From a virus, in UHGV virus genome UHGV-0185920: a stretch of 10,525 nt of DNA, one strand, 5' to 3'. Of this stretch, positions 1 to 8,118 are shown piece after piece (within the stretch, counting starts at the first letter, position 1; each line of letters opens with the position of its first letter). The position numbers and the translations under genes were made by a program. The notes under the pieces are model-generated. The model was not told the DNA's origin. It was given only the letters and a program-made list of their open reading frames with translations, and made no database searches.

Positions 1-34
1 AAACACACCATATATTGAACGACAAGTAAATCAC

Positions 35-73
35 ATGTCACTCCTAGAATGCGATATCTTTAAGGAGTGACAT
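35..73. terminator. Perfect 11-bp inverted repeat (ATGTCACTCCT / AGGAGTGACAT) with 17-nt loop; possible terminator downstream of the tailspike gene
   Basis: Stem arms at 35..45 and 63..73 read directly from the sequence; lies about 80 bp past the tailspike stop codon; moderately T-rich flanks on both strands. Function inferred. Confidence 0.3.
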
Positions 74-155
74 TTATCTATAACAAATTACTAAAACACC
101 CAAAAAACATAGACTTCAATTGGTAATATTGAGACTTAAGGTGTCAGTAAAATAG

Positions 156-2888
156 TTAATTTGCAAGCTTATTTTCCAGTTCTTCAATCCTCTTTATAAT
201 ATTTTTCTGACGTATACCTAATGCAGCAATCATTAGATACTGTAATTCATCATTTCTGAATGCATAGCGTTCTCCTGCTTCATGCGTAATAGTTATAGCC
301 TCACGAACAAGGTTACCTTCATCATCATAAACAGCTGGATCTGTATCTGTATATGCATCCCATCTGTCATAGCAGATCGCTCCGTATTTAAATGGATCAA
401 GTCCATTCTCTCTGAATATTTCCATTGCCCGTTGCACCGTAAGTCCGGCATGAAGTCTGGCATCAGCTCCCTTATTTTTTACACTATCAAGCCATTGATA
501 AAAACCAATTTCATCAACAAGAGCTAACCCAACCGCCTGCTCTTTATCGGAAAGAGTTCTGACTTCCGTTTTCTCTGTTGCATCAGATGTATTTATAGTT
601 GCAGTCCCTGCGTAGACCTGAGAAAAGCGGTTAACGGACCTTCCAAGTGATACCTGGTTATCAGTTGTTGGCCTTAATGTCGTCGTCGCCCATGTCGATG
701 TAGTATCTTTAGTCGCAGAAAATACTGTTACATTCCCCTGCTTAAGTCTGACGACACCTCCATCTGTAGAGGCAAGTATCAACTCACCAGCCGCAGATGG
801 ACAATCAGCAGCATGGATATCAATATAAGCACCACCCGCAGTATTCCCATCTTTAGAACGGAACTGCATACCTCGAAAGTTTGAGTCGAATACTGCTTTC
901 GTACTTACCCATGAATTATTGTCATGTCCGTAATCTGTATCAAACAGGTTAAGGTTATTTCCATAATTCAACTCGAGGGATTTGGTATACTCTCCAATGG
1001 CTTCGTCAAATATCGCAATAGTAAATGAACCGTGCTCACGGTTAAAGGCGATATCAGTTCCAGCATAATATTGATGCGCGGTTCCGGTATACGGATCGGA
1101 TTCTGCACCATGCACTGGATGGTTGCCAAGAATATCAGACAGGTTTGCTATTCCAAACAGATGCTTATTTCTGCGAGTATAATCACCTGATTTATATGTT
1201 GCGCCTGAATCCCATTCACCACTTGTCGCTGCAAGCGATGTTTTTAACCAATAAGACCTGTTTGTCGGAAGATTTCCCTTGTTATCACCAGTAACAATAC
1301 TTACCCAATTTTTACCACGATGGCTTACAACATCCCCTGCGCTTTTCCATACATCCATAGCACCACAGACAAGTTCATCACCTCTTATTGCCAGCCCTTC
1401 AGGCTCAAAGCTAACCGGAACTCCGATTTTAGAGTCAGAACCATTTAACTGAGTCTCTGTATAAAGTGATGCGGCAAGTGATACAGGAAATGAACGTATT
1501 AGCGTACCACCCATATCATAAATCTGTACTGTCCTTACGCATCTTGCAGGAACGCCACCCCAAATTGTGTAAATATATCTGCTATCTGATGTAATACCCT
1601 GAAGTGTTGCACCATACTGACCTTTACCACGGACAAGTGGAACAGGACCATTAATCGGTCTAACTTTCATTGGGTTAGAAGAAGATTCCACTTCTTTGCG
1701 ATCATATACGTATAAAAAGCGGCCAGTCCCAGCGTTTGATGTCGCAATTAATATGACATATCGCCCATCATTAGATACACAAATACTTGCCCGCTGCGCA
1801 AGGTTAATCAGATTATTATCACCCGGCTCACCAAATACTCGGTAATGAGTTATATCTTCAGCAGATGTTGATGCCCCTTTCCATTTTGTCTTTGAATACC
1901 CCTTCCCTCCTAGAGAGGAACCAGTCTCAGCAATTGTTGTTGTAAACAGATATAGTTCACCGTTCTCTATTGTGGCAGAAAGATCTGAACCGTGACCAAG
2001 AGGCAATGGCTCTGTAAATGTCACAACATAAAGAGTTGAACCATCGCTTGTATAGTGCCACTCACTGATCCTTGTGAGGGTGTCCGTTCCCCAGTTAGAA
2101 CCTCCAACCTGTTGAGTGATAAAAACCTTCTCAATACCTTCATGCCTTACACAAGCTATTCCCTGCAATGCATTTTGTGCATTCGCATATATAGTTGGCG
2201 CATTGATATCATCACCAAAATTCAGGGTCGCAAGTTTTCTTTGTCCAATGGAGAAACTTTGCATCGGCGGATTAACAGAAATGCGAACACCATTACTGAT
2301 TAGAACACCATCACCGGAGAAGCGTGAAATATCTATTTTCGATGCATCAACTATAAACTCACCAGAAGGCACATGAACCAAACCACTATTTCCTGCGCTA
2401 GATGCGGCGTCAAGAAAAGCCTGTGTTGAATCTCTATTCCCAGAGTCATCCGCCCCCCACCCGCGAACGTCTTTATCATCCCGCCATCGTGCAATCTGTA
2501 ATTCAGGGTATTTTTTAGCACCATCAGGATCTTCTAATTGCTGCCGTAACTGATCCGGGTCATACTTCAGCACATTCGGAAAATAGAACTGCTGCGTACC
2601 ATAAGCATCGTACACAGCCATAGAGTGTCCTTTCACAGTAACGAATTTGGCAATCTGTCCGTTATATACAGGATATCCAGCAGCATTGATAACGATTGGT
2701 TGCGAAACAGGAACGTGAGAACCATCTTCATTCTCTACATAAACCTGAATCTGGTTTTCAGGATTTACAGGGTCAGTGTCAATTTTACCGATATAAATTT
2801 TTCCATTAGCTACGGCTTTAAAAGAACGAGCCATAGTGAAGAGTTGAGAAGGCATCCCAATTACAACATTTGGAGTTATATCAGGCAT
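156..2888 (-). CDS. Tailspike protein: P22 gp9-like N-terminal head-binding domain, central receptor-binding/depolymerase domain of unknown specificity, C-terminal peptidase-S74-type intramolecular chaperone domain
   Basis: Minus-strand ORF 156..3041 in the track. From MPDITPNVV through [26 protein letters not shown] to LKYDPDQ the protein matches the P22 tailspike N-terminal domain as I recall it. Start chosen at ATG 2888 (AGGA 8 nt upstream); alternative ATG at 2897; the track Met at 3041 adds 48 residues with no homology. C-terminal SDATEK (Ser and Lys at i and i+5), HAGLTVQ and [10 protein letters not shown] resemble autocleaving tail-fibre chaperone domains. Confidence 0.9.
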
Positions 2889-3235
2889 ATTAGTCATCCT
2901 GTTTGAAAATTTAGATATTGAAGAAAACGGAATGACTGCAGACAAAGATGCAATTGTTTTGAAAAATAATCTTCTATTCACTTTAAAACTATGCAACATG
3001 AACAAAACAATTATTTTACAACAAGCAAGAATCTTGATCAACAGACATATGCTTTATGCGTTTAATGCGTCACTTAAAAATAACAAGTACTACTTTTATT
3101 CCTATCGTCCATGATTTTCATTTTCAAATATTATTAAATAACAATTCCTATTTATAATATCTGTCATTTAATTTGCTCCAGATACAAGGAATCGCTGCAG
3201 CGTGGCCGCAGTGATGCATTATTAATCAAATAAAG

Positions 3236-3250
3236 AGACCACAGTGGTCT
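3236..3250. promoter_or_regulatory. Perfect 15-bp palindrome AGACCACAGTGGTCT; candidate Mnt operator, abutting a candidate mnt promoter (TTGAGG 3253..3258, 17-bp spacer, TAAGAT 3276..3281)
   Basis: Palindrome read directly; it sits 64 bp upstream of the mnt start and its CCAC-N-GTGG core resembles the P22 mnt operator as I recall it. Promoter hexamers are weak matches picked by eye. Confidence 0.45.
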
Positions 3251-3313
3251 TATTGAGGATGCAACCAGCAGATAATAAGATGCCGCTCCACTCACAAAAG
3301 CGAGGCATCAAGA

Positions 3314-3565
3314 ATGGGAAGAGATGACCCGCAATTTAATCTGCGGCTACTTTACGAATTAAAGGAAAAACTAAAACAGCGAGCCAAATCCAATGGCCGC
3401 TCTCTTAATTCAGAATTAGTTCAGATAGTGACTGATGCTGTATCAAAGCCATCCAAAATTTCAGACTATCGAGACGATGCAGAACGCATCGCTGATGAGC
3501 AGTCCGAACTTGTTAGGAAGATGGTGTTTGATACGCTGAAGGATTTGTACAAAAAACCCACCTGA
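3314..3565 (+). CDS. mnt: Mnt repressor (P22 immI maintenance repressor, ribbon-helix-helix family)
   Basis: 83-aa ORF; GRDDPQFNLRL, NGRSLNSELVQIV and DAERIADEQSELVRKMVFDTLKDLYKK closely match P22 Mnt as I recall it, including the C-terminal tetramerisation region; GAGG 8 nt upstream of the ATG. Confidence 0.9.
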   Translation: MGRDDPQFNLRLLYELKEKLKQRAKSNGRSLNSELVQIVTDAVSKPSKISDYRDDAERIADEQSELVRKMVFDTLKDLYKKPT

Positions 3566-3583
3566 AGGTGGGTCCTATTTATT
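3551..3583. terminator. Bidirectional rho-independent terminator between convergent mnt and the lipoprotein gene
   Basis: 7-bp perfect stem ACCCACC (3556..3562) / GGTGGGT (3567..3573) with TGAA loop; A-run on the left (a U-run for the minus-strand transcript) and T-rich tract on the right. The mnt stop codon TGA at 3563..3565 lies in the loop. Confidence 0.6.
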
Positions 3584-4001
3584 AGTCTTGCTTTGTTGAT
3601 GGTATAAGAGATGCGTTTGCCTCTTTTGGCTTCAAGGTATACATCCCACCATTAAAAGGATCTACAGCAAGCCAACCAATTAACCCACCAAACACAAGGT
3701 TTCCACCAATATACCAGCCATTAGCATTGGCTTTGATTGGCAGGGTAACTGGTTCGTACCCATCCTTTTCCATAGTGATCTGGTAGCTCTTTTTGCCAAA
3801 ATAACTACCATCTGACTTGGCAAGAGTTACTCCTTGTGGGGTCTTACCTTGCGCAACAATCACGCCTGATTCGTCTTTTACCTTAAAGCTCGCACCGGAA
3901 GGATTGCTGTTCACTTGCACAAGCTGCGTTTCGTCACCAACAATAGTTGCGCACCCAGATAACAATATAGCGCCAGCAACGACGCCAATAATCCTCTTCA
4001 T
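3582..4001 (-). CDS. Putative lipoprotein with C-terminal glycine-rich (glycine-zipper-like) segment; function unknown
   Basis: ORF 3582..4013 in the track. Signal peptide with lipobox (MKRIIGVVAGAILLSGC) and glycine-rich GGNLVFGGLIGWLAVDPFNGG near the C-terminus. Start placed at ATG 4001 (MKR) rather than 4013; the 4001 versus 4013 choice is uncertain because neither has a strong RBS. Confidence 0.7.
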   Translation of the reverse strand: MKRIIGVVAGAILLSGCATIVGDETQLVQVNSNPSGASFKVKDESGVIVAQGKTPQGVTLAKSDGSYFGKKSYQITMEKDGYEPVTLPIKANANGWYIGGNLVFGGLIGWLAVDPFNGGMYTLKPKEANASLIPSTKQD

Positions 4002-4118
4002 ATCAATTTCCATATTTAAAAAACCGGAAACATCCTAATGACAAACCATTCAAATGTGAAGTAGGCAAAAGATGTTTACTTTTTTCATGGTATCCTGCTC
4101 AAAACTAAGGAGGTTGGC

Positions 4119-4508
4119 GTGAAGCAATTTCTTACTGCTATGTTCTTATTCATATCTTTTGGGGCTACAGCAGAGTGCTGGGTCGTTGGAGATATGCGCG
4201 GAATAAGCTATTCAGAACGAAATAATTTCCATCCGGAAGAAGATGGTTTTAGTGGAACATTCATCATTAAGACAAACGGTGAAGATGCCAGCATCACATA
4301 TTCTGGGACAGATGCGGGCGGCATGGCTTACAAAGCATTGTCTAAAAACTCCATCATAGGAATCGGCGCGAATGGCGAAACTCAACGCGTTATCGACTCA
4401 TGGGTAATACATCCTACTGGAACAGTTTTAATGTCAAAAACCATTTCCGGTTATAGAAATATGGATTCAACCAAAGCTTTTGTTGGAAAAGTAAAAAGAA
4501 AATGTTAG
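4119..4508 (+). CDS. Secreted (signal-peptide) protein of unknown function
   Basis: 129-aa ORF starting at GTG 4119 with a strong RBS (AAGGAGG 4107..4113, 5-nt spacer); N-terminal hydrophobic signal-like sequence MKQFLTAMFLFISFGATA followed by a soluble domain; I recognise no family. Confidence 0.7.
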   Translation: MKQFLTAMFLFISFGATAECWVVGDMRGISYSERNNFHPEEDGFSGTFIIKTNGEDASITYSGTDAGGMAYKALSKNSIIGIGANGETQRVIDSWVIHPTGTVLMSKTISGYRNMDSTKAFVGKVKRKC

Positions 4509-4599
4509 CGATTGAATCCAATTTCCCATACGTTACTGCTGTGTTGCCTCAGTAGCAAACAGCGGTCTGATGGCATTCGCAGCGTTATTTATCGCTCTT

Positions 4600-5646
4600 T
4601 CATAGGCTGGTGTTCAGAACGTTTACCGGAGTGGTATCAGCAAGAGAGGTGTTTACGTTAGCGTAAGCCTTCTCTTCTTTTGTCAGTGACGCGTCATCCA
4701 GTGCAATCGGTTTCGGCGTGATTTCGATGTGAGTACCATCGATCACACGGGTGATTGAGAAAGTCGCATCATCAGTTAGCACGTTCTTCGCCATCTGAGA
4801 CAGGAATTTCACACCAGTGAAACTGATTTTGTCGCCGCGCTTAAATCCGGTGGTGGAGGATACGGTCACCGTTGCAACACGGTTGTCGACGTTCTCTTTG
4901 TTACCATCGGTATCAAGGGTGTATGCCTGCGGCTTAAACTTCTGCGCACCAGAAACAGTTACACCAGTAGCGGTTGACTTGGTAACTGCCGGAAGTTTCG
5001 GTGAGCGAAGAATTTCATCAAAGCCAGCAATCTGACGCTGAATAGTACCGTTGCGATACGCTTCTTCAGGAACGCGACCGAAGATGTCACCATCTACCAG
5101 GTTGCGGCCTGCTTTGCGGTAATCGTCAGGGTTCAGGAAGTAACTGATGCCCATGTCGCGGTTGAGTTCGCGGGAGAACATCAGGCGCTCTGCATCAGAC
5201 ACAAAATCCCAGCCAGACAGGCCAGTAGATGGACCAATTGCGCGGGTATCGTGAACAACAAGTGAGCCCATTTCAGTTGCCTGTTTGGCAATTGCTGACT
5301 CAATGTTATTCGCCAGTTTTTTAGCGGATGCCTGGATGCGGCGACGGTAAGAACGCTCATCACGCAGGTCATCTGCACGAAGCTCGAAGAAATCGTTATC
5401 CGGATCGCCCATGTTGCATTTCACGGAGAGTTCCAGAATCCCAGTTGCGTTGCCAGTTAAATCCCAGCCAGTCTGGGTTGGCGCTTCCTGCTCAACAGGC
5501 ATCCACACGGTGTTGCTTGAACGCCGCATGGATTCTGCCGGAGGGGTGTATTTTGTCACTTTGGACGCCATTGGCGTCAGATTCTGGACGGTTTCGATGA
5601 TTTCATCCAGAGCATACGTGACCAGTTGACCTTCATTTAATGCCAT
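4600..5646 (-). CDS. Coat (major capsid) protein, P22 gp5-like, C-terminally truncated (348 aa versus about 430 aa for P22 coat as I recall)
   Basis: [83 protein letters not shown] and [10 protein letters not shown] match P22 coat; homology stops within a few codons of the stop at 4600. AAGGA RBS 8 nt upstream; the start overlaps the scaffold stop (TAATG). Could equally be annotated as a pseudogene. Confidence 0.85.
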
Positions 5647-6557
5647 TATCGAATTCCTTTATTCAGTTGCGCCTTGAGCTTGCGGTACGTCTCTACATCC
5701 CTTTTGTTTGCTGCCGCTTCCATCTGCTTTTCAATCGCAGAGATATTTGCAGCAACAGCGTGTCCCTGAATTGGTTCATCAGGTAACGGGGCTTCTGAAA
5801 CAGGCTTGGCTCGAGGCTTGAGAGTTAAACGTTCTGACAGTCGAGTGAGTTCAATCAGCGCGGATTGCCCGTCCATCGCCAGCAACTGGCGTGTTTTTTC
5901 AGGATTAGCACCAAGGTGATACATGAGAGCAGCGGATTTCTCCGGGAAGAGGCGCATGATGTCGGCACCGACTGCTGGCGGCACCAGTTGCATGAATGCA
6001 TCCTCTTTCTCCTGATAGTCAGGGATATTGAGCTTTTCCGCTGCGTCGTAGTGCTTACGGGCTGCCTCGACGTATTGCGCTGATTGCTGGGTGAACTCCT
6101 GAGTTTTGCGACCCTGCTCGGCGACAGCCTGGCTTCGTGCGTCCATAGCCTTGATCTGCCATTCACTGTTTGCCTGCTGGAAGGCAGCCAGTGCGCGGCT
6201 CTGGTCATAGTCGTACTTAGCCAGTGCATCTTCGGAAAGATAATCGTTAGGGTCTGGTTGTTTTGGTAACTCAGGGTTCACCCGCAGGTGCTCCGGCAAC
6301 TCTCCACGCTTAACCGCTTCCATCTGCTGCTCAAGCTCACGCTGGCGTTTGCGTTCGATGCGGCGACGGGCAAATTCAGCATTAGTTGCCGGGTCTTGTT
6401 TTGGTTTCTCATCGTCTTTCAGGACAATCTCGAAGCCTTCTTCCTGACCTGCGTTGTCGTTGGCATTATCGACAACTAAGCCATCAGCAGATGCCGCTGC
6501 ATGATTGCCGGGCAGGGTTAATTCTTCAGAAGCCTGAATGTCGGTGGTTTGGTCCAT
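5646..6557 (-). CDS. Scaffolding protein (P22 gp8-like), apparently full length (303 aa)
   Basis: [62 protein letters not shown] and the C-terminal coat-binding region ([16 protein letters not shown]) match P22 gp8 as I recall it; it sits immediately upstream of coat with a TAATG overlap. Confidence 0.9.
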
Positions 6558-6570
6558 GATTAACTCTCTC

Positions 6571-7311
6571 TTATTGAGGTGTCTCGGCTACTCCGCCGGA
6601 GGGGATTTGAACTTGACGCATAAGATTCGCGAAATCCATGCGTTGTGAATGAGTCTGGTCTGCATCTTTAAGAAGCAGCTCAGCGTTAGCACGAGCATCT
6701 TTGCTGCGCTGTTGCTGGAATTGACCTACTAGCTTGAGGTACTCACGCAGTTCTGCCTGCTTGTCGAGGTCCATATTGTTGAAGATTTCTGCAATCTTCG
6801 CGGCGTTGAGTTGGTTTTGGGCTTCAACCTTGGCGGCTTCAACCTGAATCTGCGCCTGTTGGTTCTCTGCCTTGAGCAATTCAGCCTGACCTTGCAGAAG
6901 GATACCCTGCGCCTGAATTTGCTCTGCTGATGGCTGCTGCGGCTGCTGTTGAGCCTGCTGTACCATCTCCATCTCTTCAGGTGTTTCTGGTTTCTTCAGC
7001 CCCATCATCACCAGTTGCTTGTTCGCGTAACGCCCGGTAAGGTGAAACGCGACTTCAGCAGCACCAGTAAATGACTTACCAAGCTGGTTACCAGCCATAA
7101 AACATCGCTCTGGATAGTCATGCCCGGCGTCGATGAACTCACGCTGTTTGCTGTATGGCGTAAATTCATATACCGGAGAAACAGGAGAAGAGTTCTCGGT
7201 AAATATCTCGCTTGAGTCATCAATGCGATATCGGGCGCGTCCTGACGCTTCAACGATTTTATGGTGGATGGAACAGAGTGAAGAAGCCAGAAAATCGCTA
7301 ACCAGCAACAC
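6571..7311 (-). pseudogene. In-frame fusion remnant: large terminase N-proximal fragment (Walker A region, about 7027..7170) joined to portal protein C-terminal fragment (about 6571..7026)
   Basis: The upstream part contains [48 protein letters not shown], a large-terminase ATPase Walker A region. The downstream part is a Q/E/A-rich helical tail ([25 protein letters not shown] ... ETPQ) ending 13 nt before the scaffold start, where the portal C-terminus lies in P22. The first 47 track residues show no homology. Confidence 0.7.
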
Positions 7312-7630
7312 TCAAGAGCTTTCAACGGCTCTTTCATGGTTATCTGAATTCATCATAAAGAACGCCAACCACAAATTCGTTCAGGTTTGGGGGAATGGAG
7401 CATCATTTGACTGCGTTATTCTCCGCAACAGTTATTCGCTGACAGGGCAGCCAGTTCCGTGGCAGTGGTGGAATGACCGCGACGTAAGAACAATCGTCGA
7501 ACTTGGGAAGGTAATAGGATTCGACCCTAAGCGAGATATGCCATTCAAAGGAACTCGCCACAACGCGCTTGATGATGCCATTCACCAAGCCAAATACGTT
7601 TCAGCGATCTGGAAAAAGTTAGCTAAATAA
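7133..7630 (+). pseudogene. DnaQ-like (DEDD) 3'-5' exonuclease, N-terminally truncated (Exo II and Exo III motifs present, Exo I region missing)
   Basis: WGNGASFDCVIL (Exo II-like) and HNALDDAIHQAKY (Exo III-like), plus WWNDRDVRT, match the small phage exonuclease family; no DxE-containing N-terminal segment is found in any frame upstream; the 5' end overlaps the terminase fragment on the opposite strand. Confidence 0.65.
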
Positions 7631-7646
7631 TCAACAGGAGAAAACC

Positions 7647-7943
7647 ATGCCAGCGCCTCTGTATGGTGCGGATGACCCGCGCCGCTGTTCCGGCAATTCC
7701 GTATCGGAGGTGCTGGATAAATTCAGAAAAAACTACGATCGGATAATGTCGCTACCGCAGGAAACGAAAGAGGAAAAGGAATTTCGCCACTGTATATGGC
7801 TTGCAGAGAAAGAAGAACGAGAGCGAATTTACCAGACATCAATCCGACCATTCCGCAAAGCCACATATACCCACTTCCCTGAATATATCGACCCGCGCCT
7901 GCGTAATTACCGCTCACGCTATGGCGCTATCAGTAATGACTGA
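7647..7943 (+). CDS. Hypothetical early-region protein (98 aa)
   Basis: ATG with AGGAG RBS (7636..7640); co-directional and tightly packed with neighbouring genes; no family recognised. Confidence 0.6.
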
Positions 7944-7953
7944 GGAATTTACC

Positions 7954-8118
7954 ATGAGAGGACTTGCATACAATCCCGGCATTCTTCCGGCAGAAATGAT
8001 TATTCGCCAACGCGTAAAGCCAATGCCATCGAGAGAGGAATTGCTTAAGAGAAATTCTTTTCCATCAGTAAATCAAAACAAATATCTGAATGCGATGTGG
8101 CGGAGTGGGAAGAAATGA
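7954..8118 (+). CDS. Hypothetical small protein (54 aa)
   Basis: ATG 7954 with GAGG 8 nt upstream; its stop overlaps the next start (ATGA at 8115..8118). The track reports a longer 105-aa version from 7801 that overlaps the preceding gene; the short form is preferred. Confidence 0.45.

Follow-up and report, generated by a model that had tools for sequence, protein, structure and literature searches.

What became of the genes that should follow the coat gene in a P22-like prophage whose coat gene stops early? The stretch of DNA analyzed here, UHGV virus genome UHGV-0185920 (10,525 nucleotides, hereafter the window), carries a coat protein gene of the P22 type that ends early, and the genes that would follow it in the P22 order are missing. 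A first-pass annotation, made from the letters alone, had ascribed this to a single deletion or replacement at 4590-4615 that took the 3′ end of the coat gene and about 7 kb of tail-hub and ejection genes. Comparison with intact relatives leads to a firmer reading: the junction, here called J1, is very probably a deletion scar in an integrated P22-like prophage, produced by illegitimate joining at a short homology. Deletional decay of prophages is a general phenomenon that has been reviewed in the literature, and J1 is an ordinary, textbook case of it. What is new is limited to where J1 lies, to the base, the 4 bp of microhomology on which it falls, what the deletion actually took, and the recurrence of the scar in many other assemblies.

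Host Context and an Intact Relative

The window belongs to a bacterial chromosome. With positions 3000-7400 as query, it is 100% identical to the chromosome of E. coli TUM10008 (NZ_CP135658.1). Of the 5,426 complete E. coli genomes searched, no other covers 80% or more of these positions; a query spanning coat, scaffold, and portal matches TUM10008 in one place only. There, the element lies between thrS and an acyltransferase gene on one side and an IS1-split integrase gene next to espL1 on the other. No publication was found under the strain name TUM10008 in the literature. In E. coli MS 16-3, the same chromosomal site holds a prophage that is still intact (about 39 kb); it lies beside an identical flanking acyltransferase protein and provides the reference for what follows.

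On the integrase side, TUM10008 and MS 16-3 share only 97.3-97.9% identity in the flanking chromosome between espL1 and yniB, compared with 99.3-99.9% for the prophages. The flanks being less alike than the prophages, the strains seem more distant from one another than their prophages are, which suggests either that the two prophages were acquired separately or that local recombination took place.

The Junction Between the Coat Gene and Gene 16

Two blastn blocks against the MS 16-3 prophage meet at J1 and overlap there by four bases, GTTC (Table 1). In a base-level alignment this tetranucleotide is found at both breakpoint sites of the reference and once in the window, i.e., an identical short sequence stood at each parental breakpoint and one copy was kept. 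Immediately outside GTTC the parental sequences part; every base is accounted for, with zero filler, and the two flanks are collinear with one contiguous reference with nothing inserted between them. Relative to the intact prophage, 7,448 bp are gone, corresponding to 2190128-2197575 of the MS 16-3 sequence NZ_CP146667.1. The same two boundaries, 4615 and 4612, were recovered with the prophage of strain A26 (98.7 and 98.6% identity). The boundary on the gene 16 side was also reproduced with phage Emek, and that on the coat side with eight phage records. An IS footprint, filler DNA, and a longer imperfect repeat were all sought at J1, and just the four identical bases were present. Alignment to intact relatives, as the first-pass annotation had proposed, thus places the breakpoint inside its interval of 4590-4615, and of the two kinds of footprint that it had named, microhomology was found and an IS trace was not.

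Table 1. Features of the window discussed in the text, with blastn blocks against the intact prophage of E. coli MS 16-3.
Feature	Position	Strand	Description
Collinear block vs. MS 16-3	1-3206		blastn, 99.7%
Tailspike gene, intact	156-3041	-	P22 head-binding domain and endosialidase-chaperone (Peptidase_S74) C-terminal domain
mnt	3314..3565	+	Arc and Repressor_Mnt domains
Collinear block vs. MS 16-3	3467-4615		blastn, 99.3%; reference 40721-39573
Lipoprotein gene, intact	3582..4013	-	Lipobox LSGC, phrog_6823, weak PEGA-domain match, WP_000821222.1
Exported-protein gene, intact	4119..4508	+	129 aa; Sf6 gene-38-like, phrog_2651, signal peptide; convergent with gene 16
Gene 16 (DNA transfer/ejection protein) 3′ remnant	4533..4615	-	Last 26 codons, native stop at 4533-4535; 83 bp
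Coat gene (gene 5), pseudogene	4600..5646	-	ORF, Pfam, and tblastn; 348 aa, C-terminus PVNVLNTSL then stop
J1, deletion junction	4612..4615	.	4-bp microhomology GTTC; alignments overlap exactly here
Collinear block vs. MS 16-3	4612-7029		blastn, 99.9%; reference 32128-29711
Scaffolding gene (gene 8), intact	5646..6557	-	303 aa, 99.7% identical to intact relative
J2, deletion junction	7028..7029	.	2-bp overlap TA; about 2.96 kb lost
Collinear block vs. MS 16-3	7028-7172		blastn, 100%
3′-5′ exonuclease gene, chimeric	7133-7630	+	First ~29 codons (88 bp) lost at J3
J3, deletion junction	7170..7172	.	3-bp overlap; about 15.9 kb lost
Collinear block vs. MS 16-3	7170-10448		blastn, 99.7%
IS1A in prophage integrase	~10449-10525		9-bp target duplication; TUM10008 locus 19450-20216

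The lost segment comprises coat codons 346-431, an ORF of 82 aa, the genes for gp4, gp10, a gp26-like needle, gp14, gp7, and gp20, and most of gene 16, encoding a gp16-like DNA transfer protein, of which only the last 26 codons were spared. In tblastn searches, residues 554-579 of MS 16-3 gp16 match the window at 4613-4536 with 100% identity, and residues 584-609 of P22 gp16 match the same remnant at 73%; the match with Emek is likewise to a protein annotated as a DNA transfer protein. Past this remnant come the native 24-bp spacer and then the native neighboring gene. The DNA immediately downstream of the coat stop, which had been taken to be unrelated, is therefore native throughout: the last 83 bp of gene 16, its spacer, and its neighbor. 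With queries from both P22 and MS 16-3, gp4, gp10, gp26, gp14, gp7, and gp20 had no match anywhere in the window (tblastn, E <= 1e-3), in agreement with the earlier failure to find these genes elsewhere. The loss of about 7 kb and of genes 4, 10, 26, 14, 7, 20, and 16 was thus correctly foreseen; the further loss of sieA, which had been listed with them, was not borne out, as described below.

The Truncated Coat Gene

The coat gene is the longest ORF overlapping the J1 region. It comprises 345 coat-derived codons followed by three out-of-frame codons (TSL) and a stop (TGA at 4602-4600), all four supplied by the gene 16 remnant. Where the MS 16-3 protein reads NVLN-VATTTANVFW..., the window reads NVLN-TSL-stop. 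Residues 1-346 match the family profile PF11651 (P22_CoatProtein) at positions 1-344 of 423 (E = 2e-132; 442 bits, with a cut-off of 24), and residues 1-344 of P22 gp5 (430 aa) align with 72% identity, confirming that homology to gp5 runs to within a few codons of the stop at 4600. With the intact protein of MS 16-3 (431 aa), identity is 99.1% across residues 1-347. The 348 aa of the window compare with 430-431 aa in intact relatives, and about 85 residues (85-86) are missing from the C-terminus, close to the 80 or so that had been estimated from P22. A coat protein that naturally ends at this position was sought among the matches, and every solved or profiled relative continues past it.

Structural data place the breakpoint within the fold. 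The solved P22 coat chains (430 aa) align with the window protein over residues 1-345, and the missing 85 residues correspond in this alignment to 346-430 of the full-length solved coat. The I-domain construct 2m5s aligns to residues 224-345, and the coat match stops where the construct ends. In P22, the missing residues presumably pass back from the I-domain to the A- and P-domains, in the HK97-like core fold. The ORF thus lacks the C-terminal strands that follow the I-domain in the full-length fold of about 423-431 residues. Because it covers only part of the fold it is a pseudogene, in agreement with the PGAP/RefSeq annotation of TUM10008 (pseudogene, "incomplete; missing C-terminus"), and its product would be non-functional. 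No sigma-70-like site was found upstream of scaffold and coat on the minus strand, which was scanned from 5560 to 7700, and the fragment is most likely silent, i.e., untranscribed.

Two Further Deletions and the Map of the Remnant

J1 is one of three such junctions in the window (Table 1). J2 joins portal residues 570-721 in frame to an internal fragment of terminase (residues 34-82), giving an ORF of 175 aa to which PGAP assigns the name "terminase large subunit domain-containing protein." J3 spans from the 5′ end of the terminase gene to the 5′ end of a 3′-5′ exonuclease gene, and removed terS, the lysis genes, Q, nin, and the replication, immunity, and recombination genes, together with the region that holds the late promoter in P22. 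With its original start gone, the exonuclease gene begins at an ATG that lies in the antisense terminase fragment, and it encodes 165 aa vs. 182 aa in the intact prophage; PGAP treats the chimera as an ordinary intact protein, and its exact sequence is found in 182 blocks of the assembly collection.

Together, J1, J2, and J3 account for about 26 kb missing from the roughly 39-kb reference. What remains follows the synteny of the P22-like late operon and immI region: terminase, portal, scaffold, coat, then gene 16, the moron slot, mnt, and a tailspike gene with the P22 head-binding domain, all in correct order and orientation. The remnant is collinear with the prophages of MS 16-3 and A26, and partly with phage Emek, which is classified as a Lederbergvirus. 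It falls short of a complete, inducible genome, and judging from its gene content this grounded remnant of roughly 10 kb should be unable to replicate, assemble, or lyse. An Rfam scan of the whole window returned zero matches.

From Gene 16 to the Tailspike

The genes beyond the junction are those of the parent prophage. In this lineage, gene 16 natively adjoins the gene for the 129-aa exported protein, which aligns collinearly (99.3%) with the intact prophage, and the lipoprotein has the same accession, WP_000821222.1, in the intact MS 16-3 prophage. The order that had been reported after the coat stop, a pair of exported-protein genes and then mnt, was found as described. Between gene 16 and mnt, MS 16-3, A26, and Emek all carry an Sf6-gene-38-like exported protein, and MS 16-3 carries the lipoprotein as well; no sieA homologue was detected by tblastn across the window. 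sieA was therefore no part of the loss, as these relatives carry exported-protein genes in its place, and those genes are intact in the window. The lipoprotein and the 129-aa exported protein fill the slot of sieA in P22, and are candidate morons expressed in the lysogen.

Next to them, positions 3207-3466 lack arc and ant, and the 5′ half of mnt, encoding the DNA-binding part, differs from that of MS 16-3; the flanks on both sides are more than 99% identical to MS 16-3. The absence of arc and ant was considered as a fourth strain-specific deletion and rejected, since 55 complete E. coli genomes, and EC24, a further E. coli genome, have the ant-less layout of tailspike and mnt without a break. 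From these comparisons, a mosaic variant of immI appears to be the best explanation of 3207-3466. At the other end of the tailspike gene, just left of the window (TUM10008 locus 8291-9001), lies the acyltransferase gene, in the position taken by the gtr/oac serotype-conversion genes in P22 and Sf6.

Distribution of the Scar

The assembly collection lists the exact 348-aa coat product in 206 blocks, and the protein is recorded on 118 contigs that come from NCBI, ENA, JGI, and Logan. Strings of 50 nt over J1, J2, and J3 are identical in six independently produced assemblies, which match the window at 99.99-100% over about 10.4 kb; one of them is a metagenome contig of 163 kb. All three junctions were present on every contig examined. 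Intermediates with only one or two of them were not found, either with junction queries in complete genomes or by lookups of the proteins spanning J1 and J3. A partial match in SCAID URN1-2021 was considered as an intermediate and rejected, as it carries a different rearrangement. Overall, the scar has most likely been inherited clonally, by descent in one lineage.

Persistence of the Remnant and Other Accounts of J1

Another remnant of the same prophage type occupies the same thrS-side site in EC24 (NZ_CP182191.1, 7249-20826 in locus coordinates). Its tailspike protein is identical, and window positions 1-4121 are collinear with it at 98.9%, the collinearity ending at the exported-protein gene. 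EC24 retains gene 16 and part of gene 20, and has lost coat, scaffold, and portal. Judged by these differences in content, it represents an independent decay path. The block common to EC24 and the window runs from the acyltransferase through tailspike and mnt to the lipoprotein.

This shared block bears on whether the remnant has been kept by selection. In one version of that idea, the coat fragment would act as a dominant-negative capsid decoy; in another, it would be a passenger of a selected block made up of the acyltransferase, tailspike, mnt, lipoprotein, and exported protein. That EC24 decayed independently, lost different genes, and kept the same acyltransferase-tailspike-mnt-lipoprotein block speaks for selection, as does a coat fragment that ends exactly with the I-domain construct and could therefore partly fold. 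However, the near-identity of the copies reflects recent shared descent and is uninformative on selection; the late promoter and the Q region are gone, and the scan upstream revealed nothing resembling a promoter; coat and scaffold are absent from EC24, so both fall outside the shared retained set; and the 85 residues missing from the coat belong to what we take, from the P22 structure, to be the core fold. Selection on these grounds is highly unlikely to explain the remnant. At 0.1-0.7%, divergence from the intact prophage leaves too few substitutions for dN/dS on the retained genes. The block shared with EC24 is the sole hint of selection on a part of the remnant, and the coat fragment is not involved in it. 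Such a block might guard against related phages or modify the O-antigen, and, more speculatively still, the coat fragment (N-arm through I-domain) and the scaffold could form a decoy that poisons the assembly of superinfecting P22-like phages; we regard both proposals as very unlikely.

For the origin of J1 itself, the first-pass annotation had left deletion and replacement side by side. In a mosaic replacement, the coat 3′ end and the block from gene 4 to gene 16 would have been swapped for unrelated DNA from another phage. P22-like genomes are highly mosaic, and the immI region of this very remnant, which differs from MS 16-3 at 3207-3466, is best explained by such an exchange. At J1, however, the flanks match one contiguous prophage (99.3 and 99.9%) with a 4-bp overlap and not one foreign base, and the DNA past the junction is the native gene 16 end and its native neighbor. 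Replacement is thus extremely improbable, and the deletion half of the earlier claim stands, for the coat 3′ end as well as for the tail-hub and ejection block.

A deletion adjacent to an IS element or another transposon is a second possible origin of J1. IS1 promotes adjacent deletions, and a copy sits in the integrase gene of the same remnant, about 5.8 kb from J1. Against this, J1, J2, and J3 show no IS end, inverted repeat, or target duplication; no IS sequence is present at 4590-4640, and the sole IS1 begins near 10449. In addition, the gene calls of at least one assembly with J1-J3 show an integrase region free of IS1, from which it follows that IS1 was inserted after the deletions. The probability left to an IS-mediated deletion is minimal. 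Finally, an artefact of sequencing or assembly, such as a contig collapsed or misjoined in a single genome, is next to inconceivable even though TUM10008 alone spans J1 among the 5,426 complete genomes, as the identical 50-nt J1 string recurs in the six independent NCBI and ENA assemblies, the 163-kb metagenome contig included, and the exact 348-aa product recurs on 118 contigs from several sources.

A Proposed Course of Decay

The preferred account of J1 accordingly remains a deletion in situ, suffered by a P22-like prophage (Lederbergvirus type) that had integrated beside thrS in E. coli. The deletions are placed in the integrated prophage because a phage without a coat would not be viable, and because the remnant has the attachment site of its intact relative. 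Illegitimate, homology-independent joining at GTTC would have fused coat codon 345, out of frame, to the terminal 26 codons of gene 16, taking with it the tail-hub and needle genes 4, 10, and 26, gene 14, and the ejection-protein genes 7, 20, and 16. Similar short-overlap deletions at J2 and J3 took portal, most of terminase, lysis, Q, replication, and immunity. The identical sequence of the remnant in many isolates points to its vertical transmission.

We infer that J1 formed by one event and not by nested deletions; one step and nested steps leave indistinguishable scars at J1, because the last event erases earlier junctions. As to the pathway, if ends were joined bluntly and at random, the probability of finding 4 bp or more of overlap would be 0.016, and that of finding 4, 2, and 3 bp or more at J1, J2, and J3 jointly would be about 1e-4. 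The overlaps thus exceed those of random joining and, together with the absence of filler, resemble short-homology illegitimate deletion in bacteria. The 4-bp microhomology at J1 is compatible with such a mechanism and is not proof of it. Replication slippage or RecA-independent short-homology joining is the pathway proposed from the scar; the span of 7.4 kb at J1 is long for simple replication slippage.

Relation to Known Prophages and Significance

The comparison with P22 shows both the ancestry and the damage. The remnant follows the gene order of the P22 late operon and immI (8-5-4-10-26-14-7-20-16-sieA-mnt), and its coat is 72% identical to gp5, its scaffold 85% to gp8, and its Mnt 72% to P22 Mnt. 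Unlike P22, this lineage lacks sieA, arc, and ant, and has the 129-aa exported protein and the lipoprotein after gene 16; the window in addition lacks a counterpart of gp5 345-430 and genes 4-20. Defective lambdoid prophages such as DLP12, Rac, Qin, and e14 offer the closest parallel in fate: they too lost essential genes for structure, lysis, and replication by internal deletions and IS insertion, and they too are non-inducible remnants inherited by a host lineage. Unlike those cryptic prophages of K-12, the remnant described here had a P22-like podovirus as its parent and lies at the thrS-side site, and its parent structure survives intact at 99.3-99.9% identity, so that the breakpoints can be read to the base.

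The main value of these results is for annotation: what the TUM10008 lineage carries here is a P22-like remnant, structurally dead and non-inducible, with breakpoints known to the base. The strings over J1, J2, and J3 are unique among the 5,426 complete E. coli genomes and may serve as a PCR or k-mer marker of the lineage. The locus could also feed a survey of the prophage genes that survive decay. Side by side, the window and EC24 show how, in nature, prophages of one type at one attachment site can decay along separate paths.
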